A DNA stretch of 64,000 bases from Escherichia phage FP43 (MN648445); one strand, 5' to 3'. Counted from the first letter of the stretch, positions 835 to 25,574 are shown. Numbers and translations are program-made. The notes: generated by a model not told the origin, from the letters alone.

Positions 835-3800
835 CTAATTTAACCTGTGGTGGATTCACGGGGTCTCTTGGATTTCCTACATTATCGATTAACCGTTGTT
901 CAACCAAATCTCTAAATCTAGAGAATGTTGTTCCGGACGCATCAAATAATGGGCTCATCAGTTTACGTCGTTCCGATGGAAGTTGACCTTGAAATATGGA
1001 GTTATTGTTTTCAGCGTTATAATCTTCAGGCAATGGATAATCTTGTCCAGCCATAGGGCCTATTTCATATATCGCTTTACCTGTAATAGGGTCAAACTCA
1101 ACATTTCCTTGTGGGTCTAATTTAGCCACTCGGTCTGCATATTTAGTCGGTAATCCAGAATCCCACTTATAGTTTTTGTATTTATTAATAATGGTTTCAA
1201 CATGTTTAAGTGTTAATCCGGTGTTAATAAACATTGTGAGAAGGGTAATTGCGATAAATCCAAATCCAACCGGATGAACAAAACGTAATACGTCTGATTT
1301 CCAACGAGATGATGGAAGTTTAGATTTAATCTTCATTACGTAGTATGCTCTACCACGATTTATGTAATCGATGTTGTTCTGAGAAAGCTCTTTACCTTTA
1401 ATACCACGAACAATTTCACCTTCAAAACCCGGGAGTCTTTCAGCTTTAACTTCCTGTCCTTGGATTAAACGACCTAAGAGGTTGTGAATTGTTACAGTCC
1501 ATTGTAATTTACCTTTAGAGTAACTTCTCTCGATATACGTCACATTACAACGTCCTGTAGCGGTGTATATGGTTTGTCCGACCAAATCTTCTGTCAACGA
1601 ATCAGATTCAATGATGATATCATATTCGGTCCCGGAACTAGATTCAATTTCAATTTCAACATCTTCGTTATAAAGCACTTTAAACAAGAATTTATATGAC
1701 GCTTCAGTTCCTTTAGTTGAATAGAAGTCATAACTTCTTGATTCAAAGAAACGAGACACTAAATCGCGTTTTTCGGCGTTTAAGTAAATGTTTCGTTTAT
1801 AAATCTCAGACCATAAATATTCCCACGCATGTTCTTCTCGCGGATATTGATTTTTAATAAGATTCAAAAGGTTGTTATAATGGGTCCCATAACCGTCAGA
1901 AAGATACTGAATATAAGCCTCGCAGAATGCTTCGAAGTTTGTATTATCTAAAAGATAAGACTCCGGCATCATTGTAGTGAGCAATGGTCGTAAATCTGGG
2001 TCCGCAATGCCGTTCTCTTCTACAGGAGCCCATGTGGTATCTTTTTCTTGGTTTTGTAACGATGCCGTTAAGAATATATTAGTAGGCTTCCAAATTATAG
2101 AAACATTATCTCTAACACGATAACTAAAATCATAATAAGAAATAATCTCACCTGATGATTTATAGAAAATCATGCCGGATGCATATTTTTTAAATCCGGT
2201 GAAATCCACGTTAGGCATCACTATTGTACAGTCACCGTCCTTCCAATATTCATGAACTTCACGGTCTGAAGAACTAAGTGGATGATTCTCAATAACCTTA
2301 GTGTAAAGTAAATCAGAATAAATTACAACGGCCTTGTCTGAGTTATTAATCCAACAACGAGTACCAGACTTTCTAGAATAACTAAAGAATGGCTCAGCAT
2401 AGTATTCCATCGGTTGAGGAGTGAACGATTCCCATTGAGAGTCTTCAGTTGAAATAAATGCCATCATATGATAATGTTTATCAGCCAACCATTCGCGAGG
2501 ATACTCATATTTAACAGCACCGATTAAACCGTACTTGATTTGTGTTTTTGGGTCATCAACAATATCCGATTCTAGAAATTTAAAATTACTAGATGAAATA
2601 GATAACTCAACACCATCAGTAGACATACTGGTGTACCCAGGTTCAATACGACGGCGTTCTTCTTCAGTATTACCAAACACACGTTTAAATGTGCCAGCAT
2701 CATGGTCTAGAACGTAAACGCCCTTATCAGCAGAATCAACAATAGGAGTGGTCCTCGGGTCGTCATTAAGATTAACAACTTCGCCGATAATCAGTGCAAA
2801 TATTTTACCGCCAACAGAATCCATTTTATAGCAAACTGCCTTAGGGTTACCTGTGATGTTAAATGTTTCTTGTTCAAACAAACGTTCGGAATATGTCGGA
2901 GATAACGGGTCTGAATCAATAGGGGCATTACTAGTTTTAATAAAACGAACTTTATCTCGAGCAGCAACGTATACATAATCGTCGTTGCAAACGATAGCTT
3001 CTGCAATACGTGATACGTTAGCAGGTAATGATGCGTAGTTACCAAATATTTCTACATCAAATCCTAAATTTAACTGGTCACCAATTTTAGCAAATGTTAT
3101 ATCTTGAGAACTAAATCTCACATCATCAGCAGACCAACGAACGTCAGTTGATTTACGGCCGTAAAATAATTTATCATACCCAAGAACATACGTGGTATAA
3201 CCTGTCTGGTAATACACTGTTCTTGATACAGGGTACCCTACACGGTCATTAAACAATTTAACCGATTTCCAGGTTTGTCCCTTATCATTAGAGACTTTAA
3301 CCACAGGCTGATACCGTTCAAACAAATAAAGAATTCCTTCAGATTCCATCAAATAAACACGGTTTATATCATGACACACCTGTTGAATCGAACCTTGAAT
3401 TTCATGATACTCATTTTCGCCAATAATGAAATTTTTAATAGATGAAATATCCGCATAAGCAGGGCTAAATTGGAACGATTCATTCATTAGAGCTGCCATT
3501 ATAGTGTCGTTATTAAAATCGACATAAGCCGTGTTGTTATTTGTAAATTTTTCTCTAATAAAAGTGTTAGCCAATTGCATTTCAATCATATGTTGAAATG
3601 TATACGCGTTAGTCTGAAATGATTCAAATATTTCGGTGTATACCCAATCGGATCTCTCGAAGCCTTCAGCGGCAGTTGATACACGAATAATATAAGAAGT
3701 TAATGGGTCTAAGCTACTTTCGAACCAGTTGCTATTAGGAGTATATCCTAAATTTATCCATCTGTAGCTGGCAGGAGGAATTATTTCCCCGTCTGCCGTT

Positions 3801-12959: not shown

Positions 12960-13223
12960 ATGAAAACCTATAAAGAATTTATCGCTGAATCTCAATCTTC
13001 TACTCTGTCAGAGAACTACGAATCATTCTCTTACAACAACGACCATGCAATGTTCTACGACCGAAACATCGGTACTTACGTCCATGTATGGGGTGTTAAA
13101 GATGGTAATGTAGTTGTTAAGAAAAACTCTAAAGAAGGCAACGGACGAGGCCAGGTAAAAATTACCAGCAAGAAAGCTATCCAAGCTTACGTCGATTATG
13201 TTAAACGCGAAGCTGGTATTTAA
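12960..13223 (+). CDS. Internal-protein-like capsid-targeted protein (second copy)
   Basis: N-terminus MKTYKEFIAE; tandem with 12604..12891. Confidence 0.6.
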   Translation: MKTYKEFIAESQSSTLSENYESFSYNNDHAMFYDRNIGTYVHVWGVKDGNVVVKKNSKEGNGRGQVKITSKKAIQAYVDYVKREAGI

Positions 13224-15623: not shown

Positions 15624-16250
15624 ATGTATACTTTTAATGAATTTTTAGCCGAAACGGAAGTAATCACCGAAGCCGGTGTACGTATGACAAAAGAGAAATG
15701 GCAAGCTGCTTACGATGCTATTTCTGGTACAAAAACTAGTACAGAGTTTTTCAAAAACGTTCAAGCCATGTACGGTATCGACACTTCCAGCCAAAAAGAA
15801 TATTACAGAGCTTCTAAAGCATTCAAAGATATTGTTAGTGGTGGTGTTTCTGCTAAATCTGGTTCGCCTAAAGTAAAACCTGCTCCTACCACTCCTAAAC
15901 CTGCGACCCCTAAAGCAGTAGCAAAACCTGAGCCTAAGCCGGAAGTAAAAGCAACTCCTAAAGCTCCTGCTCTTAAGTTTGATACTTCTAGCCTGGAAAA
16001 AAAATATAAACAACTATCTTCGCTTGTTCGTGATATTGAATCTGATACATCTTCACTCGTTCGTGAATTCAATAGTCTTCGTAATGGCCAACATATCAAC
16101 AACCTTGATACCCCAGACCTTTATCGTCTTTATTTGACTATCGAAGGTTTGAAGTATACTCAACCACTTCATGATGAGATTAAAGAAAAACTTCGACAAG
16201 CAGGTCGTTTGGCTGCTGACGCTGCTCAGTATGCAAAAACTCGTAAGTAA
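15624..16250 (+). CDS. Internal-protein-like protein with Pro/Lys-rich linker
   Basis: N-terminus MYTFNEFLAE resembles the capsid-targeting leader; low-complexity PKVKPAPTTPKPATPKAVAKPEPKPEVKATPKAP; late promoter upstream. Confidence 0.55.
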   Translation: MYTFNEFLAETEVITEAGVRMTKEKWQAAYDAISGTKTSTEFFKNVQAMYGIDTSSQKEYYRASKAFKDIVSGGVSAKSGSPKVKPAPTTPKPATPKAVAKPEPKPEVKATPKAPALKFDTSSLEKKYKQLSSLVRDIESDTSSLVREFNSLRNGQHINNLDTPDLYRLYLTIEGLKYTQPLHDEIKEKLRQAGRLAADAAQYAKTRK

Positions 16251-17363: not shown

Positions 17364-17399
17364 TTTACAAACTCTTGAGAGCAGAGTATAATGCTCTCG
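17363..17399 (+). promoter_or_regulatory. Early promoter cassette (TATAAT flanked by GAGAGCA/TGCTCTC); near-identical copy at 47266
   Basis: ATTTAC -35, TATAAT 17387..17392; the 45-bp cassette recurs at 47266..47312. Confidence 0.6.
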
Positions 17400-17433
17400 T
17401 TGGATAATAAACCACCAATTGAAAGGTAATAAT

Positions 17434-18027
17434 ATGAACACATTGAAGAAACTTGTTGAATTCATCCGCACTAAACTGGGTACTGCTATGGCTAAAAATC
17501 TGACTGTAGAAGAACAGTATAACGCAGCTGCAGATAAGTTGATTACCCAAATCAAAGAACTAAAAACGGCTTCTGTTAAATCTATTAACGAAGAAAAACG
17601 TATTCGCGAACTTGTTAATGAAAAGAACAAGCAAGCCGCTTCTAAGGAACGTGAAATTCGTAAGCTCCTGGCTGAAGGACAAGATGTTACCATGCATGCT
17701 AAGCTTGGACTTCTGTATCGTCGAACTGCCGAACAACTTAATACAAAAGCTGACGGGTATGCCGCTATGCGAATTGAAATTGCTCGTAAGGTGGTTGAAC
17801 TTGACGATGCTCGTCAGAACCTGGCAATCAAACTCGAATACATTCGTGAAACTCGAGCAGCCAATGCCCTTGGTATCTCTACCGCTGACGATGTAATTGA
17901 AATCGCTGCACTGACTAAGGTTGATATCGAAGACACTCTGACTCGTGTTGAAACGTTCAATGGCACTCCAGCTGGTGTCGAAACCACTTCTGCTGATGTA
18001 CAAGAATATATTAACTCTTTGAAATAA
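17434..18027 (+). CDS. Coiled-coil protein, function unknown
   Basis: 197-aa ORF, Ala/Glu/Lys-rich heptad-like sequence. Confidence 0.45.
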
Positions 18028-18036
18028 AATAATACG

Positions 18037-18059
18037 GAGGACTCCGGTCCTCCTTTTGG
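18037..18059 (+). terminator. Rho-independent terminator
   Basis: GGAGGAC-TCCG-GTCCTCC stem followed by TTTTGG. Confidence 0.7.
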
Positions 18060-18076
18060 ATAATAAAGGAGTTAAC

Positions 18077-18679
18077 ATGCGAAACCAAAATAATGATATT
18101 GACTCAATGTTCGAAGAGTTCCGAGATAAGGTAAATCCACCTACGTCTTTAGTTGATTCATTACGATATGTTGCAACCGGACGTAAATGGTACTGGTCGT
18201 CTTCTTATGAGACCACCGAGAAAACGGCTAGCCATAGCAGAAAATCTTTATTAGCCCCAGGTATTATGATTCATGATATCGGAGCTATTGCTAAACTAGT
18301 TGCAGACCATGATATTAGATTCACTGATTTCGTTGCTCCTACGTGGTCTGTTTGTTGTTTAAACACTGAATGGGAATATATCAGCGAACGCTCTGAAGAT
18401 TATTATGGTTTTAGAGATAAGCTTCTGAGGTCTAATATGTTTTATATCGATACAGAAGTTCTAGTCGATAATAAAAAATATTACTTTACGTTAATCATCG
18501 ATTCTGAAACTATGTATGAAGGCAAGCCTTTGCTTAAAAGAGTTGATGCTTTAAGTGCTATTGATGCGCTTTATGAAACTATGGTTGTTAGTCCTAATTT
18601 CACTAACAATTTAATCCTTGAGCAATTTATTATGGAATGTAGAGAATATGTCAAAGCCAACCCTATACATGCCAAGTAA
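18077..18679 (+). CDS. Hypothetical protein with EQFIMECR motif near C-terminus
   Basis: About 200 aa from ATG 18077 with AAAGGAG RBS. Confidence 0.45.
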   Translation: MRNQNNDIDSMFEEFRDKVNPPTSLVDSLRYVATGRKWYWSSSYETTEKTASHSRKSLLAPGIMIHDIGAIAKLVADHDIRFTDFVAPTWSVCCLNTEWEYISERSEDYYGFRDKLLRSNMFYIDTEVLVDNKKYYFTLIIDSETMYEGKPLLKRVDALSAIDALYETMVVSPNFTNNLILEQFIMECREYVKANPIHAK

Positions 18680-19043
18680 GCCCTGGGCGTATGAATACAA
18701 GCGTAAATTAATCCCAAATGAAGTACTATTTGGCCCTATTTTAGCTTTAGCATTTTTAATCTTTATGATTATAGGAGCTGTTTTAGATTCTAGTGAAGTT
18801 ATATCGTCTGATGCAGCATTTTCATTAATGTTCGTCGCACCACTTATTGTACCGTTTTTATTAATGCCTATTAATTGGGTGGGATATTGGCACCAAGGCC
18901 GTCATCACAGAGCCCGATTAAGAGAATGGAAAGTTCAGTGCGCAAAAGCCCAAGCTCAGTATGATGAAGCTGTTAAAAAGTATGAATATGAAGAAGCTAT
19001 GGAATTCGTTAAGGAAATAAGATGCAAAAGCCTCAACTCTTAA
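18648..19043 (+). CDS. Membrane protein (start uncertain)
   Basis: Two hydrophobic helices (ILALAFLIFMIIGAVL, LMFVAPLIVPFLLMPI). Confidence 0.4.
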   Translation: MSKPTLYMPSKPWAYEYKRKLIPNEVLFGPILALAFLIFMIIGAVLDSSEVISSDAAFSLMFVAPLIVPFLLMPINWVGYWHQGRHHRARLREWKVQCAKAQAQYDEAVKKYEYEEAMEFVKEIRCKSLNS

Positions 19044-19381
19044 CCGTATGGCCTTCTCTTGGTGAGAACATTCTAATTTTTATTATGAGTATTGGCATGG
19101 GATTTGCCTTTGGATTAGTTGGATTTCTTATTGACGGCGTTGTGTTAGGATTTATAGGGAACACTGGTGGATTCACAGACCAATGGCAGGACTTACGGTA
19201 TACCCAAGCCTTTGCATCCATCGCATCATTTTGTACTGTAGTCTATTTTTACTACGATTTTATAAACCACAACAAGAAAAATAAAAAGGTTTACGCTTCT
19301 CAAATGATTAGTTATAATGAACTCCTAGCTAGACGTGAAAATGAAACAATCGAAAACTTTATTAAGGAATGTAGAAAATGA
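19022..19381 (+). CDS. Membrane protein, C-terminal NFIKECR motif
   Basis: 119 aa, hydrophobic N-terminal half, C-terminus ...NETIENFIKECRK. Confidence 0.45.
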   Translation: MQKPQLLTVWPSLGENILIFIMSIGMGFAFGLVGFLIDGVVLGFIGNTGGFTDQWQDLRYTQAFASIASFCTVVYFYYDFINHNKKNKKVYASQMISYNELLARRENETIENFIKECRK

Positions 19382-19683
19382 GTAAGATTATTGAAATTAA
19401 AGTACCAGAGTTTAATGATGCCAAATCCGCTTCAGATGCAATTTATAAACTTCTGAATCAAGCTGAACGTATCGAAGAAGAAGCAACAAAGATCGCAGAC
19501 CAATATGCCGTATCATTTTCTGTAGGTGATTATGGTAGCGGTCGTACTTATTATCCTAAGGGTGAAATCGTATCCCAGTGGATGAAAGATGAAATTGAAA
19601 ATAATGGCGGCGATGTTAAGCGTGAAGGTAATGGATACGTTATTACTGAAGGTGCTTGGGTTTCGTCTTCTGCGTTGTGCTAA
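19378..19683 (+). CDS. Small protein, WVSSS-Cys C-terminal family, copy 1
   Basis: 101 aa ending ...GAWVSSSALC. Confidence 0.5.
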   Translation: MSKIIEIKVPEFNDAKSASDAIYKLLNQAERIEEEATKIADQYAVSFSVGDYGSGRTYYPKGEIVSQWMKDEIENNGGDVKREGNGYVITEGAWVSSSALC

Positions 19684-19692
19684 GGAATCATT

Positions 19693-19965
19693 ATGTCTAA
19701 AGAACAAACCGAACTGGCTGAAGCTGTAGCAAAAATCTATGCCGCTATTGAGGCTGCCAAAGAAATTGCTGATAAACAAAACACAACATTCAACTTGTAC
19801 CCAGCTTATGGTATGGGTGGAACCTATCATTCACCCGGACATCTTAAAGCCGATCTTGAACGTTGTACAAAAAACGGTTATGCCGAATGGGCTGACGTTT
19901 ACCAATACGACTACAACCTGAGCCTCGAAACTGGTGGTTGGGTCGCATCTTCTCACACTTGCTAA
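19693..19965 (+). CDS. Small protein, WVSSS-Cys C-terminal family, copy 2
   Basis: 90 aa ending ...GGWVASSHTC. Confidence 0.5.
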   Translation: MSKEQTELAEAVAKIYAAIEAAKEIADKQNTTFNLYPAYGMGGTYHSPGHLKADLERCTKNGYAEWADVYQYDYNLSLETGGWVASSHTC

Positions 19966-19974
19966 GGAAACAAT

Positions 19975-20172
19975 ATGTCTCGTGAATTAGATTGTGCTGT
20001 ACGTACGGCAGTAGCTGCTCTGGAAAACCTGTTCCAAATTGCAACAGAAGAACGCGAAGAAGTTACATTATGGATTGAAGATAACGCAGGTCTGAATCTC
20101 CAGGACGCGATCTCATTATCCCACAATAGTATCACTGTTCAAGGCTGGGTATCATCTAGTTATTCTTGCTAA
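19975..20172 (+). CDS. Small protein, WVSSS-Cys C-terminal family, copy 3
   Basis: 65 aa ending ...QGWVSSSYSC. Confidence 0.5.
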   Translation: MSRELDCAVRTAVAALENLFQIATEEREEVTLWIEDNAGLNLQDAISLSHNSITVQGWVSSSYSC

Positions 20173-20176
20173 AACA

Positions 20177-20214
20177 GTTTACAACAAGATAGGGCTATGT
20201 TATAGTAGTCCTAT
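20177..20214 (+). promoter_or_regulatory. Early promoter cassette (GATAGG.CTA / TAGTCCTATC family)
   Basis: GTTTAC 20177..20182, TATAGT 20201..20206. Confidence 0.6.
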
Positions 20215-20234
20215 CAAAACAAATGGAGTCCACA

Positions 20235-20474
20235 ATGATTTATTACGAAAGTATCGGAACCAAAGTGGTTGGTAAAACCATTACTCGTGAAAAGTTTGCA
20301 AAGATATTCGATATGCGTTATAAAAAATCTGAACACAAAGGCATCCGATTCGAAGATGCGCACTGTACAATTTGCCCTTATAATGAAGACATAAACGGTA
20401 CAATCGTTCCATTGGTAGAGGCTTCACATGATGACCTCTGGGATGAATATAATATCGCATGTCGTGAAATTTAA
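20235..20474 (+). CDS. Hypothetical protein
   Basis: 79-aa ORF from ATG 20235 with GGAG RBS. Confidence 0.4.
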   Translation: MIYYESIGTKVVGKTITREKFAKIFDMRYKKSEHKGIRFEDAHCTICPYNEDINGTIVPLVEASHDDLWDEYNIACREI

Positions 20475-20502
20475 GTTAATGAATTAATCCGAGGAAAATA
20501 TT

Positions 20503-21459
20503 ATGATGTTAGTTATTGGTTCTCGTGCACTTCACTATCACGGTCTTATTGATTCTAGCGCTATTAAAAATAGTGATTGGGACTTTATTGCGGACCAAGG
20601 TTCTTGGAATGCATTCAAAAATCAAATGATGGGTGTATATGTTCACCAAGATAACCCTGATGTCCAAGTTTTCAAATGCTTCCATAATGGACGCGAAACT
20701 CATTTTGAAGCATACATCGTTCCGGCTATCACTAACGTTCGCGAACTAGTCGGTGAACTCACTCCTGAAGATTTCACGTCTTCTTATGACCTTTTAAAAT
20801 ACGCCAAGAAAAATTTGACTAAAGACCGTTTGAACGGGTTTTACTGGGCAACTCCTGAGATATGTCTTGCAATTAAGATGTCTCATCGTTTCAAGAAAAA
20901 TAATCCATTCTTTTTAAAGACTATGAACCATATTCAGTATCTTCGTGGTAAAGGTGTTACACTGAACGATGAACTTACTGAAATTATGCTGAAACGCCAG
21001 AAAGAAACCTTGAATTATGCTCACCCAGTTCTTGACACTTCTAAAAGTGCGTTCTTTAAAGATGACATCTATACATATGACCATGATACTATTCATGAAG
21101 CCATTGCACTAACAGACCGTCCAGCGTATACATTTTATATGAAAGATGGTTCTGAAGTCATGACCTCACGCGAGAAGTTCGAATCATTACCAGAAATGGT
21201 CAAATTGGCCGGCGTATACGAAGAATCATGTGTACTAGCGTTAGAACGTTCTCAGATTCCTAATAACTTTGAAATCCATCCACGTGATAGTTTTATGATG
21301 GCCCTTGAAAAGGTCTGTACATCAATCACATCAGGATGGTTCCGTGAGTTCGCTTGGGAAAATTATAGCAAAGTAGTAAGTATGTACCAAAGCTTAGGAC
21401 ACGACGATTACGTCAAGCGTTTCAAACAAAACTTTCATATGGTAAAACCTTTCAAATAA
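20503..21459 (+). CDS. Hypothetical protein, possible nucleotidyltransferase fold
   Basis: 318 aa; N-terminal VIGSRALHYHGLIDSSAIKNSDWDF resembles the GS...D-x-D minimal NTase motif (weak). Confidence 0.45.
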   Translation: MMLVIGSRALHYHGLIDSSAIKNSDWDFIADQGSWNAFKNQMMGVYVHQDNPDVQVFKCFHNGRETHFEAYIVPAITNVRELVGELTPEDFTSSYDLLKYAKKNLTKDRLNGFYWATPEICLAIKMSHRFKKNNPFFLKTMNHIQYLRGKGVTLNDELTEIMLKRQKETLNYAHPVLDTSKSAFFKDDIYTYDHDTIHEAIALTDRPAYTFYMKDGSEVMTSREKFESLPEMVKLAGVYEESCVLALERSQIPNNFEIHPRDSFMMALEKVCTSITSGWFREFAWENYSKVVSMYQSLGHDDYVKRFKQNFHMVKPFK

Positions 21460-21471
21460 TTTCACAAAACA

Positions 21472-21510
21472 GTTTACAAGGTCTGTAGTTGTTGATACTA
21501 TAGACCTATC
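21472..21510 (+). promoter_or_regulatory. Early-type promoter cassette
   Basis: GTTTAC 21472..21477, TACTATAGACCTATC downstream. Confidence 0.5.
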
Positions 21511-21539
21511 AAAACAAATGAGTGAATGGAGATATAAAA

Positions 21540-21740
21540 ATGACTACTTTGAATAAACGTTTCGGTAAAGCTAAACCTGGTTGTGCAGCAGAACGTCGTT
21601 ATGTTTTCGCTCAGTTAGAAGATGTAGAGTATCAGATTAATCAAGTTCACATTACTGGTATCGAGCCTATGTGTGGCCTTGAAGCTCTTCGTGAAGTTCG
21701 TGATGGGTATCGTCGTGACATCGAAGAAATGTCAAAATAA
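21540..21740 (+). CDS. Small hypothetical protein
   Basis: 66-aa ORF. Confidence 0.35.
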   Translation: MTTLNKRFGKAKPGCAAERRYVFAQLEDVEYQINQVHITGIEPMCGLEALREVRDGYRRDIEEMSK

Positions 21741-21741
21741 G

Positions 21742-21779
21742 TGTACAAACTGATAGGACTATGTTATAGTAGTCCTATT
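21742..21779 (+). promoter_or_regulatory. Early promoter cassette (TGTACA -35 variant, GATAGGACTA/TAGTCCTAT arms)
   Basis: TGTACA 21742..21747, TATAGT 21765..21770. Confidence 0.55.
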
Positions 21780-21798
21780 AAAACATGAGGAGAATATT

Positions 21799-22104
21799 AT
21801 GAAATTAGGCGAAACCAACCGAATTGGTCTTTTAACAATATTTGTATCACTTTTTTACGCAGCTCTTTCTGTTGCAGTATTACAAAAGGCTTACAGTATG
21901 GATGGTGTTCCTGGTTTTGTATTCTTATCGCCGTTTTTGCTATTCGTTGGAGCATTGTTATTATATGCCACGACTAGTTTCGACCATAACGTCTGGGTCA
22001 ATTATAAATGTAAATTGTCTGAAGAAGAACACGCAGAAGCTCGTAAAAAAGCTATTGAATCTACCAATCTAGAAAATTTCATTAAAGAATGTCGAGGAAA
22101 ATAA
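21799..22104 (+). CDS. Membrane protein, C-terminal NFIKECR motif
   Basis: 101 aa, two hydrophobic helices, ends ...STNLENFIKECRGK. Confidence 0.5.
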   Translation: MKLGETNRIGLLTIFVSLFYAALSVAVLQKAYSMDGVPGFVFLSPFLLFVGALLLYATTSFDHNVWVNYKCKLSEEEHAEARKKAIESTNLENFIKECRGK

Positions 22105-22105
22105 T

Positions 22106-22792
22106 ATGAATAGTTCTAAAGTGTTTAATAGTCAAGCTCGTGCAGTAGGTGGTTTTGCTCATGCGATTAAAAATGACCAGATTAAAAACGAGCCTATGTT
22201 CTTTAATTGCGATTTGAATTTTGCTTTTGATAACGGCGGTCCAATTACTCGTAGCTTTATCCAAAATCTCCCTGACGATTGGAAAGACTCAGATGTAGTA
22301 TTTGATTCACGAGTCCATATGCTGATGCCTGGTTGGTACCCTGCTATCCCAGGTTATCACCATGATGATGTACCACGCCCGGATATTCCGGTTGGTCAAC
22401 ATTTTATTACTGCAGGACAACCTGACTATGACAATCCTCGCTATTTGTCTGAACATATTCTTGGTCTTGTTAACGCTGATGTGTGTCCTACTCATTTTGC
22501 AACAGGAACTGCAGAGTTCAGTCAGATTCCTGATGGCGAACTTATCTATCGCCAGTGGCACAAAGAAGTCCTCGAAAAAATTGAAAAAGGTGAACTAGAG
22601 AAATGGGAAGCTCCAGATCGTACTCTTCTTCAGTTTGATTGGCAAACATGGCACACTGGTTCTCGTGCAATTAGTAATGGATGGCGTTGGTTCGGACGTG
22701 TATCTCGTAATACAGACCGAGTTAAAAAGATTACCAATGAAATTCGTGTCAATGCTCAAGTTTATCTGGAATTCCCTATGGAAGGCTGGTAA
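22106..22792 (+). CDS. Hypothetical protein (very tentative 2OG-Fe(II)-oxygenase-like motifs)
   Basis: 228 aa; HHDD ... H ... R-x-S pattern only. Confidence 0.4.
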   Translation: MNSSKVFNSQARAVGGFAHAIKNDQIKNEPMFFNCDLNFAFDNGGPITRSFIQNLPDDWKDSDVVFDSRVHMLMPGWYPAIPGYHHDDVPRPDIPVGQHFITAGQPDYDNPRYLSEHILGLVNADVCPTHFATGTAEFSQIPDGELIYRQWHKEVLEKIEKGELEKWEAPDRTLLQFDWQTWHTGSRAISNGWRWFGRVSRNTDRVKKITNEIRVNAQVYLEFPMEGW

Positions 22793-23283
22793 TGATTAAC
22801 AAAACATATTGGTCTAATATAGACGATGGCAACGAAGGTATTTCGTACTATTCAGTGGATTGGACAGGATGTCCATCCTACTTAGTGAAACGTATTTGCC
22901 AAGAATTTAAAATCGACCAGCCAGCAGGTATTATCGTGAACAGATACATTAATGGATATCAACCTATCGATGAAGTAATACGAACAACTCAAGCTGAGCT
23001 TGAAAAGTTTTTCAATAAGTGCCAATGGATAACAGGATGGATTATATTTGTACCGTCGGTATGGTTTTTCAGTACTAAGGTGAGTTCTTTCGGTTTTGTT
23101 GATATTATTGCTATCTTATTAGCATCTAGTATCGTAAGTGTTGTTGGTGGCATCATTGGCGGCGGTACCGCCGCCATCATTATTAATCTTATTAAAAGTA
23201 GTTTACAAGAACATAAAGACAAGATAAAAGCCAAGAATAATGAAGTTGAACGTTTTATTACCGAATGCAGGAATTTGAGATGA
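22792..23283 (+). CDS. Membrane protein, C-terminal RFITECR motif
   Basis: 163 aa, Gly-rich hydrophobic segment, ends ...NNEVERFITECRNLR. Confidence 0.5.
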   Translation: MINKTYWSNIDDGNEGISYYSVDWTGCPSYLVKRICQEFKIDQPAGIIVNRYINGYQPIDEVIRTTQAELEKFFNKCQWITGWIIFVPSVWFFSTKVSSFGFVDIIAILLASSIVSVVGGIIGGGTAAIIINLIKSSLQEHKDKIKAKNNEVERFITECRNLR

Positions 23284-23516
23284 GTATAGCAATTTACATT
23301 AAATCAGAATCATGTGATAGTTATCTGTACACATATGATAAAGATGTGTCAGAAGAAAAAATCAAAGACGACCTTAATACGGACCTTGATATGTTCTGTC
23401 CTATTGCAGATTACAAACTTGCGGTCTCTAATAGTGAAAGTCCATCTAAAGAAACGCGCATTGAAGAATTTATGTCTGAATTAATGGCCAAATCATGGGA
23501 CCGAGATGATGAGTAA
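23280..23516 (+). CDS. Small acidic hypothetical protein
   Basis: 78-aa ORF with ATGA overlap to upstream stop. Confidence 0.4.
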   Translation: MSIAIYIKSESCDSYLYTYDKDVSEEKIKDDLNTDLDMFCPIADYKLAVSNSESPSKETRIEEFMSELMAKSWDRDDE

Positions 23517-23964
23517 GAAAAATAAAGTGAAAGAGCTATCAGCCGGTATTATTTTCCTTACCGAAGATAAAGAATTATTCATGGGGCGTGTAACTGGTTC
23601 TCGTCCTAAAGGTGCATTAACTCATCGGTGGGATATTCCTAAAGGCCGTGTCGAACCTGGCGAATCTCCTATTGAAGCCGCTATTCGTGAATGCGAAGAA
23701 GAAACTGGGTTTACACAATATGACCCTGCCTTCCTGAAAGACCTAGGTGAACATCATTACTCAGACAATAAGAATATTCATCTGTTCCTATATACCATCC
23801 CTGTAGAGCACGAGCAATTCAGAAACAGTGTTTGTAATTCCTATCATACATTCCAAGACGGACGACATATTCCTGAATTTGATGCATTCGCTTTAATTAA
23901 ACCTTCTCAATGGGAATATGTAATGGGCAAATCGTTATATAAGGTGCTCACTACCCTCCTATAA
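23506..23964 (+). CDS. nudE: Nudix hydrolase NudE
   Basis: 152 aa with Nudix box GRVEPGESPIEAAIRECEEETG; directly upstream of e as in T4. Confidence 0.8.
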   Translation: MMSKKNKVKELSAGIIFLTEDKELFMGRVTGSRPKGALTHRWDIPKGRVEPGESPIEAAIRECEEETGFTQYDPAFLKDLGEHHYSDNKNIHLFLYTIPVEHEQFRNSVCNSYHTFQDGRHIPEFDAFALIKPSQWEYVMGKSLYKVLTTLL

Positions 23965-23970
23965 GTAATA

Positions 23971-23998
23971 AATACCTCCTATAAACGTGGGAGGTATT
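23971..23998 (+). promoter_or_regulatory. Stem-loop sequestering the Shine-Dalgarno of gene e
   Basis: 9-bp stem AATACCTCC / GGAGGTATT with 10-nt loop TATAAACGTG; ATG at 23999 follows immediately. Confidence 0.65.
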
Positions 23999-24487
23999 AT
24001 GAATATATTTGAAATGCTTCGTAATGACGAAGGTCTTAGACTGACTTTATACAAAGACACTGAAGGCTTTTGGACGATTGGCATAGGCCATTTAGTAACA
24101 AAGAACCCGTCTTTAGCCGTAGCTAAAGCTGAACTTGACAGAATGATCGGTCGTAAATGCAACGGTACAATTACCCTTGATGAGGCTGAAAAGCTATTTA
24201 ATGAAGACGTTGATAAAGCTGTCCGCGGAATCTTGGGTAATGCTAAACTTAAACCGGTATATGATTCTTTAGATGCAGTTCGTCGGTGTGCATTGGTCAA
24301 TATGGTCTTCCAAATGGGTGTAGCAGGAGTCGCCGGTTTTACTAATTCTCTTCGTATGCTTAAACAGAAACGTTGGGATGAAGCGGCAGTAAATCTAGCT
24401 CAATCTAAATGGTATCGTCAGACACCTAATCGCGCGAAACGCGTAATCTCAACATTTAAAACAGGAACTTGGAAAGCGTATATATGA
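23999..24487 (+). CDS. e: Endolysin (T4-type lysozyme)
   Basis: [32 protein letters not shown]...; near-identical in pattern to T4 lysozyme as recalled. Confidence 0.92.
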
Positions 24488-24765
24488 AAACATATAGTGA
24501 ATTTTTATCAGAATCTATTCTTAACGAAGCTACTGACACATTTGCAACTAAGCTAGGTGCAGCTTTGGTTGAAGCTGAAAGTCTATTAGCACGTATTTCT
24601 GAACTTGCTAGTAAGATAGATACTCGCAAATTTGAACGTACCAGCGATATCGCTAAGCTTGAAGCCTTGTTGCGTATGTGCGATAAACCAGAAGAAATCG
24701 CTAAGAACGGCTCGCTGATGAAACAACGTCTTGAAAAATATATTTCAGGCGCTTCAGAAAAATAG
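24484..24765 (+). CDS. Internal-protein-like capsid-targeted protein
   Basis: N-terminus [10 protein letters not shown]; ATGA overlap with e stop; ipII/ipIII neighbourhood of T4. Confidence 0.6.
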
Positions 24766-24823: not shown

Positions 24824-25237
24824 ATGACTCGTATCAATTTAACACTTGTTTCTGAACTGTCCGACCAACATCTTATGGCTGAGTATCGTGAATTACCACG
24901 CGTATTTGGTGCAGTCCGTAAACATGTTCAAAACGGTAAACGTGTAAAGGATTTTAAAATCTCTCCAACATTTATCTTAGGCACAGGTCACGTAACATTC
25001 TTTTACGACAAACTCGAATTTTTACGTTTACGTCAAATCGAGCTAATCGTTGAATGTTTGAAACGTGGTTTCAAAATCAAGGACACGACAGTCCAGGATA
25101 TTTCCGACATCCCTGCCGAATTTCGTAATAATTATGTCCCGTCCGAAGCGTCCATTGCGATAAGTCAAGCACGCTTAGATGAAAAAATTGCTCAACGTCC
25201 GACTTGGTACAAATACTATGGTAAATCAATTTACTAA
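24824..25237 (+). CDS. denV: Endonuclease V (pyrimidine-dimer DNA glycosylase)
   Basis: [35 protein letters not shown]...; 137 aa; recognised T4 denV pattern. Confidence 0.9.
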
Positions 25238-25244
25238 GGAAAAA

Positions 25245-25574
25245 ATGAAAACATATCAAGAGTTTATCACTGAAGTTACATTATCTGCGGAACAGAAAGC
25301 TGCTATCGAAGAAAGTAAAAATCCCAAAGTAACATATAAAGTAAATAGTAAAGGCGTTTTTGATGGCTTGGTTCAAGACCCTGAATTGAAAAAAGCTCTT
25401 TCTAAAACTAATGCGTACTTTGCTCCTAAATTTAACACAGCAGGTGTACTTATTGGATTGGATGTATTCAACTCTAAAGGTGTTCTATCTAATGCCTTTG
25501 GCTATGCCGCTAACAAAATTACCAAAGCCGCATGGGAATCCAATACCAAACAAGCTCAAAAGCCTAGAGTATAA
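25245..25574 (+). CDS. Internal-protein-like capsid-targeted protein
   Basis: N-terminus MKTYQEFITE, exact match to the recalled T4 leader MKTYQEFIAE with one substitution. Confidence 0.65.
   Translation: MKTYQEFITEVTLSAEQKAAIEESKNPKVTYKVNSKGVFDGLVQDPELKKALSKTNAYFAPKFNTAGVLIGLDVFNSKGVLSNAFGYAANKITKAAWESNTKQAQKPRV

Follow-up and report, generated by a model that had tools for sequence, protein, structure and literature searches.

Five proteins of the accessory e-block in a 64,000-nucleotide stretch of Escherichia phage FP43 (MN648445), hereafter the window, end in the same short tail with the core F-[IV]-x-x-C-R. The tail is conserved as amino acids and is kept across nine genera of T4-type phages. 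In each of these genera one of the tail carriers is encoded directly after e.6, a gene whose product is probably a divergent member of the PspA/Vipp1/ESCRT-III superfamily. We propose that the tail is a docking helix and that e.6 might be the partner it engages. T4 is the reference lytic phage, and its genes e.2 to e.6 carry no assigned function. Five adjacent proteins with one selected, predicted cytoplasmic tail, the restriction of this tail to a single block of the T4 genome and the nine-genus linkage to a PspA/ESCRT-III-like gene make these genes a testable module.

A C-terminal tail shared by five e-block proteins

Judged by sequence, the window derives from a Mosigvirus, an RB69-like T4-type phage: positions 17400-24500 are 99.6 % identical to Enterobacteria phage ATK47, and other Mosigvirus genomes match likewise. 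Orthologies were set by comparison with the annotated T4 record and with phage mobillu. All tail carriers lie on the + strand. The e.5 orthologue (protein A, 18077..18679; 200 amino acids, aa; phrog_2607; precomputed Pfam label PF26876) is soluble, has no transmembrane (TM) segment and carries EQFIMECR at 18620..18643, 11 residues before its stop. The e.3 orthologue (protein B, 19022..19381; 119 aa), a membrane protein, carries ENFIKECR at 19352..19375, one residue before the stop. The same eight residues recur at 22072..22095 in protein C (21799..22104; 101 aa; two TM segments; phrog_9798), which has no T4 counterpart and was found in Mosigvirus loci only, among the loci inspected. Protein D (22792..23283; 163 aa; phrog_2203), the full-length e.2 orthologue, carries ERFITECR at 23248..23271. 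An earlier reading made from the sequence alone had named these four open reading frames (ORFs) with coordinates, strand and frame all correct, but it overlooked a fifth member, the e.4 orthologue (18648..19043; 131 aa; two TM segments, predicted N-in/C-in). This protein ends in MEFVKEIRCKSLNS and holds the variant MEFVKEIR(C) at 18999..19022, with Ile in place of Cys and a Cys after the Arg; the corresponding T4 e.4 tail is MKFVKESRCKSQS. Between Mosigvirus and T4, identity amounts to 47 % for e.5, 54 % for e.4, 35 % for e.3 and 25-33 % for e.2.

The recurrence of E.FI.EC cannot be chance. A six-frame scan of the 64 kb gave no match to this pattern beyond those four ORFs, and against these four observed matches none arose when the nucleotides of the window were shuffled 200 times or when the residues of its 121 + strand ORFs were shuffled 1000 times. 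A profile hidden Markov model (HMM) trained on 29 aligned tails from 8 genera scores C at 19.6, e.3 at 18.2, D at 17.7, e.5 at 16.6 and e.4 at 15.0 bits, while the next ORF in the window reaches 5.4 bits. A degenerate look-alike inside D, EKFFNKCQ at 23002..23025, just before the first TM segment, is not conserved among e.2 orthologues and is probably a chance match or a relic.

Over the 29 tails the consensus reads hydrophobic(-3)-[E/D](-2)-x-[F/W](0)-[I/V](+1)-x-x-C(+4)-[R/K](+5). Position -3 is hydrophobic and -2 is Glu, Asp or Asn; position 0 is Phe in 27 tails and Trp in two, +1 is Ile in 20, Val in eight and Leu in one, and +2 is often Lys. Position +3 is Glu in 14 of the 29, with Tyr, Gly, Met, Ser and Asp also found there. 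Cys occupies +4 in 23 tails, replaced elsewhere by Val, Ile, Met or Ser, and +5 is Arg (26) or Lys (3). The invariant part across relatives is thus F/W, I/V, C and R/K, and not the Glu residues that the sequence-only reading had placed in the core. In 28 of the 29 tails the motif ends 0-13 residues short of the stop, and in the remaining tail 25 residues short; the e.5 copy, with 11 residues after it, is not at the extreme C-terminus. The hydrophobic positions -3, 0, +1 and +4 follow an i, i+3, i+4, i+7 spacing on a single helical face, and the tail is predicted to form a C-terminal amphipathic helix. In an AlphaFold2 (AF2) model of e.5, which is of low confidence (predicted local distance difference test, pLDDT, 43) and of alpha/beta type, the motif falls in a helix. 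The occurrence of Val, Ile or Met at the Cys position in some members suggests that this residue serves packing rather than chemistry.

Because the motif lies a few bases ahead of the next start codon and its GAA-TGY codons contain a +2-frame ATG, conservation was also examined at the nucleotide level. Over 20 motif copies Arg is written as AGA, AGG, CGA, CGC or CGT, Cys as TGT or TGC, Phe as TTT or TTC, and Ile/Val as ATT, ATC, GTT, GTG or GTA. The e.3 and C copies, identical in all eight residues, differ by four synonymous and no non-synonymous nucleotides. Since synonymous codons vary, the gap between motif and next start codon varies, and one Dhakavirus copy (L010:9139) has no gene directly downstream, the motif is conserved at the amino-acid level. 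Orthologues of e.5 diverge to 16-22 % identity with the motif kept, and in an alignment of four genera (identity down to 16 %) its F, C and R are within the nine invariant columns; by this comparison the e.5 tail is under stronger constraint than the remaining protein.

Between carrier families, BLAST similarity hardly extends beyond the 9-30 residues that surround the motif. The carriers are assigned to PHROGs 2607, 2604, 2330, 9798 and 2203, families without an assigned function that are each catalogued separately, and precomputed Pfam labels on fragments are all of the domain-of-unknown-function (DUF) type (PF26876 for e.5, PF26873 for e.4, PF26896 for e.2). A local Pfam scan placed e.4, e.3 and D in no family at E<=0.1 and gave C a sub-threshold match to PcfK only (E 0.005). 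Outside the tail, weak BLAST matches link e.3, e.4 and the C-terminal half of e.2, and C cross-matches the D family at the PHROG level. These three two-TM bodies and that of C may therefore be distant paralogues, so that the earlier description of a tail on different membrane anchors is only partly right. Soluble carriers with unrelated bodies also exist, namely e.5, a Kanagawavirus protein of 92 aa and a Jiaodavirus protein of 102 aa. The tail is a genuine protein-level signature on bodies that are unrelated or have diverged beyond recognition, and this amino-acid conservation beyond chance on otherwise unrelated or diverged proteins is the hallmark of a short linear motif.

The topology of the carriers was derived from crude hydropathy and positive-inside analysis and is a prediction only. 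Most membrane members have a short N-terminus, often with several Lys/Arg, followed by a first TM segment, a loop, a second TM segment and the tail. The loop spans 4-19 residues, contains at most one Lys/Arg and is net negative, whereas the tail contains 8-15 Lys/Arg. Because the loop is acidic and poor in Lys/Arg and the tail is rich in them, the membrane members are predicted to span the membrane twice with both termini inside. On this prediction the tail is cytoplasmic in every member, in line with the suggestion that all tails are on the same side of the membrane. Proteins of the e.2 type deviate in having a large N-terminal domain without signal sequence ahead of a hydrophobic hairpin. 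In D a soluble domain of about 78 aa precedes hydrophobic segments at approximately residues 79-135, and the tail comes last; the N-terminal TM helices that had been ascribed to three of the ORFs are thus wrong for D, where these segments are central to C-terminal. In e.5 neither a TM or hydrophobic segment nor a signal sequence was found.

The expectation that the motif would be conserved in orthologues was borne out across all nine genera inspected (Mosig-, Tequatro-, Dhaka-, Kanagawa-, Jiaoda-, Winkler-, Biquarta-, Pseudoteven- and Muldoonvirus). T4, a Tequatrovirus, has EKFVKECR in e.5, KEFVIDCR in e.3 and KFVKESRC in e.4, and other Tequatroviruses have a full-length e.2 of 162 codons ending NNFITECRKLK-stop. 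Tails of Dhakavirus contain FIAECR, FIKECK, FIEECR and FLEYCR, those of Kanagawavirus FVDQCR, FIKNVR, FIQMCR and FIKGCR, those of Jiaodavirus FIKYCR, FIKEVR, WIRSCR, WIKEMK and FIAKCR, and those of Winklervirus FVKMCR, FIKECR, FIKGCR and FIRGIR. A single tail each represents Biquartavirus (FVDYCR) and Pseudotevenvirus (FIHSCK). Muldoonvirus (YIDQCR, FLKSCK, FIKYCK) was held out of HMM training, and its two TM proteins reach 15.7 and 12.8 bits. A scan of the complete T4 genome with the tail HMM covered every stop-to-stop ORF of 30 codons or more on either strand, 2,387 in all. It matched only the contiguous e.5, e.4, e.3 and a remnant of e.2 (14.6-19.3 bits), with the next ORF at 8.5 bits. Since these four ORFs were training sequences, the informative part of the scan is that nothing else scores. 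A search of 5.8 billion proteins with the tail alignment yielded only fragments belonging to these families. Searches with e.5, either as a single sequence or as a profile (HMMER, Mosigvirus profile), found relatives only in Mosigvirus and Tequatrovirus, and a scan of IMG/VR with e.5 gave six loci only.

Several rearrangements were seen among these loci. The annotated T4 e.2 (102 aa) is a truncated copy. T4 retains an unannotated 53-codon 3' remnant of the gene (T4 67472-67633, minus strand, corresponding to 3485-3652 of locus L002) that ends NNFITECRKLK-stop, and the annotated nudE start is the ATG within the GAA-TGC (Glu-Cys) codons of this remnant. Natural deletions in phage p000v (L011 4001-4090) and in a phiE142-like contig (L004 9037-9054) leave only the last approximately 30 codons of e.3, as a 33-codon ORF ending ENFIKECRK-stop immediately ahead of the next gene. 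Phage OLB35 encodes a chimeric protein (P0010) in which e.3 fragments are joined to an e.4 tail. From these comparisons, the e-block is recombinationally active.

e.6 and its linkage to the tail genes

Directly ahead of e.5 lies the e.6 orthologue (17434..18027, + strand, 197 aa), a highly conserved protein that is 88 % identical to its counterpart in T4, 73 % in Dhakavirus and 64 % in Kanagawavirus; about 1,100 phage records contain it. Directly after e.6, every one of the nine Straboviridae-type genera inspected encodes a soluble e.5-like protein (180-323 aa) in which the motif is retained. With the tail removed, the e.5-like bodies still chain by BLAST, with E-values that are optimistic owing to the tiny database (Mosigvirus-T4 6e-56, Jiaodavirus-Kanagawavirus 2e-8, Jiaodavirus-Winklervirus 4e-8, Biquartavirus-Jiaodavirus 2e-5, Kanagawavirus-Winklervirus 8e-4, Pseudotevenvirus-T4 2e-3), and e.5 is therefore one very fast-evolving family.

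Modeling of e.6 with AF2 from a 45-sequence alignment predicts helices at residues 2-15, 25-80, 86-145, 151-171 and 186-196, the hairpin having pLDDT values of 85-98. This predicted arrangement matches the layout of ESCRT-III proteins, i.e., alpha0, a long alpha1/alpha2-3 hairpin, alpha4 and alpha5. When the model was compared with the PDB by Foldseek, ranks 1-8 were all Vipp1/PspA (probability about 1.0, 13-20 % identity over approximately 180 columns, E 6e-3 to 3e-2), followed by the archaeal ESCRT-III protein CdvB2. Sequence profiles point the same way: Pfam PspA_IM30 (PF04012) is the top match in five divergent e.6 members and is co-linear with them (residues 1-147 to profile 1-147; E 7e-5, 1.5e-4, 6.9e-4, 0.019 and 0.27), although the e.6 of the window itself gave no PspA_IM30 match. 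A profile search of the PDB with e.6 retrieved Vipp1 chains, again co-linear, at E 0.4-0.75, whereas plain sequence searches of the PDB with e.5 and e.6 gave no significant match. One e.6 homologue bears the JGI label 'phage shock protein A'. Together these predictions make e.6 a probable divergent member of the PspA/Vipp1/ESCRT-III superfamily.

The usual genomic neighbours of a PspA homologue are small TM proteins that recruit or regulate it, such as PspB/PspC, LiaI/LiaF and PspM, and sometimes it is paired with the small soluble PspAA (PMC11237479). The phage block resembles the Psp system of E. coli and Yersinia in that a gene for a PspA-like hairpin directly precedes those of small proteins of the inner membrane whose C-terminal helical tails are cytoplasmic (predicted on the phage side), in the order effector, then small membrane proteins (PMC11237479). 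It differs in that e.6 is below the PspA_IM30 gathering score, the phage membrane proteins gave no PspB, PspC or LiaI-LiaF-TM match in Pfam, no PspF-like regulator is present and the most conserved tail bearer, e.5, is soluble; moreover, the phage tail is unlike the invariant PspC C-terminus MERY[VI]TSDTF. In Bacillus, LiaI is likewise a small TM protein anchoring a PspA homologue, LiaH (PMC11237479), and binding on the phage side would be analogous, yet LiaI-LiaF-TM has four TM segments against two in the phage anchors. The invariant e.6-e.5 pair also recalls the actinobacterial and archaeal PspA-PspAA dyad with its small soluble alpha/beta partner (PMC11237479), bearing in mind that the alpha/beta model of e.5 is of low confidence.

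The literature searched held nothing relevant on the PspA family in phages or on T4 e.3, e.4 and e.5, and no phage homologues are treated in a large survey of phage shock proteins that spans the three domains of life (PMC11237479). We found no record in that literature of the common tail or of its association with a PspA-like gene. The underlying theme is a known one, both as a PspA-family effector with small membrane partners and as a shared C-terminal docking peptide.

Docking to e.6 and competing explanations

According to the model we propose, the soluble e.5 and the small two-TM proteins e.4, e.3, e.2/D and, in Mosigvirus, C share one C-terminal helix, predicted to be cytoplasmic, which would act as a docking or co-assembly element engaging a single partner. 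The best candidate for this partner is the adjacent PspA/Vipp1 (ESCRT-III)-like e.6. By analogy with PspB/PspC-PspA and LiaI-LiaH, the small membrane proteins and the soluble adaptor could recruit or regulate a polymerising e.6 at the cytoplasmic face of the inner membrane. Shared docking peptides of this kind have precedents in the MIM helices of ESCRT-III proteins, which bind MIT domains, and in the sliding-clamp-binding C-termini of T4 gp43, gp33 and gp55. There too, a short conserved C-terminal peptide occurs on unrelated proteins that compete for or share a partner; the F-[IV]-x-x-C-R signature differs.

A shared docking helix in general is probable, whereas the naming of e.6 as its partner is tentative and somewhat doubtful. 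Taken together, as a phage Psp-like module in which a shared docking helix has e.6 for its likeliest partner, the model is plausible while falling short of probable. A common binding partner, as proposed in the sequence-only reading, is indeed the most economical explanation of the tail; the host factor, superinfection exclusion or lysis timing that it offered as examples have no specific pointer, and the genomic evidence favours the neighbouring e.6. A still wider version, which we regard as doubtful, is that T4-type phages, T4 with its e.6 to e.2 included, encode their own Psp/ESCRT-III-like membrane-maintenance system. The carriers would then dock on, cap or nucleate the e.6 polymer via the F-[IV]-x-x-C-R helix and control inner-membrane integrity and proton-motive force, hence lysis timing, lysis inhibition or resistance to membrane-targeting defences. 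If true, the PspA/ESCRT-III superfamily of membrane-remodelling proteins would have a virus-encoded member, equipped with an adaptor code of its own, in a classical model phage. This would bear on how the inner membrane is kept energised before holin triggering, and would provide a compact peptide-partner pair to study the recruitment of ESCRT-III-like polymers in bacteria.

A number of results weigh against docking to a PspA-like e.6. The best score of the e.6 family, 23.0 bits (E 7e-5), stays below the PF04012 gathering score of 33.9, so that e.6 is not formally assignable to the PspA family; alignments by hhalign of e.6 with E. coli PspA and with 77 enterobacterial PspA sequences are weak. 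Ackermannviridae encode e.6 homologues of about 30 % identity (Salmonella Kuttervirus ISTP3, L102 4986-6374; Klebsiella Taipeivirus cp21, L103 4986-6196), and there the product of the gene after e.6 is a conserved protein of about 190 aa, anchored by an N-terminal TM segment, that lacks the motif and ends KYGF-x-W. Within 7 kb at the Aeromonas and Pseudotevenvirus loci, the e.5-like protein is the sole bearer of the motif. The tail shows no profile-score likeness to the terminal helices of e.6. Mimicry of the E. coli PspC C-terminus (MERYVTSD, invariant in 77 Enterobacterales) is not supported, with agreement only at positions -3, -2, 0 and +1 and an HMM score of -3.8 bits.

Separately, the idea that the tail mimics either the N-terminal helix of e.6, LVEFIRTK (HMM -3.9 bits), or its C-terminal helix (-1.8 to +1.4 bits) was kept as a lead only; a loose pattern of such mimicry also matches unrelated ORFs (7 of 121, against 0.46 expected).

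The docking partner might instead be a host protein, such as an envelope or division protein, a protease or a component of the host Psp system, so that the block would act in host takeover, superinfection exclusion or lysis timing without involvement of e.6. The evidence for a shared, cytoplasmic motif selected at the protein level serves this explanation equally well. In addition, the genes lie in an accessory early-gene block by nudE and lysozyme e, the motif-bearing genera infect Enterobacterales and Aeromonas, hosts with many conserved cytoplasmic proteins in common, and e.6 occurs without the motif in Ackermannviridae. However, no host candidate emerged, none of E. coli PspA, B, C, D or F receives a meaningful score from the tail HMM, and the strict linkage to e.6 in nine genera together with the restriction to one block in T4 better fits a partner inside the module. 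We therefore consider a host partner unlikely. If it were correct, the tail would be a ready bait to find that protein.

A second possibility is that the tails bind one another in homo- or hetero-oligomeric bundles with a Cys core, possibly with metal ligation or redox sensing, to form a membrane complex that tethers soluble e.5. The i, i+3, i+4, i+7 pattern with the Cys on its apolar face, the near-invariance of this Cys (23/29) and the constant co-occurrence of several carriers in Tevenvirinae would suit such bundles. Yet in Aeromonas and Pseudotevenvirus a single carrier is present within 7 kb, the helix is short (approximately two heptads) and e.4-type members have Ile, Val, Met or Ser for Cys, a substitution that a metal-binding or disulphide role would hardly tolerate; the cytoplasm is, besides, a reducing compartment. 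Self-association of the tails thus appears distinctly unlikely.

It is more improbable again that the motif is nothing but a relic, left by shared ancestry or by the shuffling of modules in a hyperplastic region; duplication or recombination would have spread it, and it would have been kept without any common partner. This would account for the weak full-length similarity among e.2 (C-terminal half), e.3 and e.4, the cross-match of C to the D family and the rearrangements of the block, i.e., the e.3 deletions in p000v and phiE142, the e.3/e.4 chimera of OLB35 and the disrupted e.2 of T4. It does not account for F, I/V, C and R lasting over nine genera with many synonymous changes while the bodies became unrecognisable, a mark of purifying selection, nor for the unrelated soluble proteins that also bear the tail (Kanagawavirus, 92 aa; Jiaodavirus, 102 aa).

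Conservation of the RNA or DNA itself, whereby the 3' end of each gene would provide the next one with a ribosome-binding or translational-coupling region, or would act as a linker in recombination, is very improbable. Every copy in the window stops 2-12 nt ahead of the next start codon, GAA-TGY yields the +2-frame ATG, the ATG within AGA-TGC of e.4 is the true e.3 start, the annotated T4 nudE start falls within the Glu-Cys codons of the e.2 remnant, and tail remnants outlast deletions. Nevertheless, the free third codon positions (five Arg, two Cys and two Phe codons, and five for Ile/Val) effectively refute such an element, be it a coupling site, a +2-frame ATG or a linker, and the distance to the next start is variable, L010:9139 has no adjacent downstream gene and the e.5 motif is followed by 11 further codons.

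Least credible of all is mimicry of the capsid-targeting sequence of T4 internal proteins, MKTYQEFIAE, in which the gp21 prohead protease cuts after I/L-x-E, so that the tail would be a targeting or cleavage signal: the E-F-I-x-E likeness is superficial, internal-protein genes do occupy both flanks of the block, but the tail is C-terminal instead of N-terminal, its Glu is unconserved, its conserved C-R is missing from targeting sequences, which serve another function, the tail HMM gives internal-protein genes of the window and of T4 no score, and anchoring in the membrane would preclude packaging. At least four internal-protein-like genes with the capsid-targeting pattern at their start are present in the window (12960-13223, 15624-16250, ~24484-24765 and ~25215-25574).

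Other features of the e-block

Just upstream of e.6 is a sigma-70-type promoter-like site, TTTACA-17-TATAAT (17364..17392, + strand; 11 of 12 consensus positions), and between e.6 and e.5 a terminator-like GC-rich hairpin with a T-run (18036..18053, + strand), both being consensus matches only. A strong promoter-like site of its own and a terminator-like hairpin would fit an abundant e.6 and scarcer downstream products. Downstream of the e-block genes follow nudE and lysozyme e. The GenBank labels 'host specificity protein' for e.6, in many records, and 'sulfurtransferase' for e.4, in several, were supported by none of the searches and look like propagated mis-annotations.

Two larger, conserved genes between e.3 and e.2 are absent from T4. 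The first (20503-21459) encodes a DUF7277+DUF7275 protein of 318 aa (Pfam E 1e-27 and 3e-79), the second (22106-22792) a 228-aa protein (phrog_1843) that one GenBank record labels a 2OG-Fe(II) oxygenase. Both also occur in Dhakavirus and Kanagawavirus, and the DUF7277/DUF7275 gene in Winklervirus too. Within the coding region of e.2/D, a perfect GC-rich palindrome, TGGCGGCGGTACCGCCGCCA, at 23157-23176 encodes the Gly-rich part of a hydrophobic segment; it was flagged in the terminator scan and has no T-run after it.

The e-block contains a second family defined by its C-terminus, tandem small soluble proteins of 65-101 aa (phrog_899) that end W-[VI]-S-S-S-x-x-C-stop. Examples of such ends are GAWVSSSALC, GGWVASSHTC and QGWVSSSYSC, each followed by the stop. 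The family occurs in the window at 19378-19683, 19693-19965 and 19975-20172 (+ strand) and also at L009 2960-4026 and 4356-4553, L010 7351-8593 and L013 8832-9391; Kanagawavirus and Dhakavirus have as many as five copies. The segment YWSSSYE in the N-terminus of e.5 resembles the C-terminus of these phrog_899 proteins.

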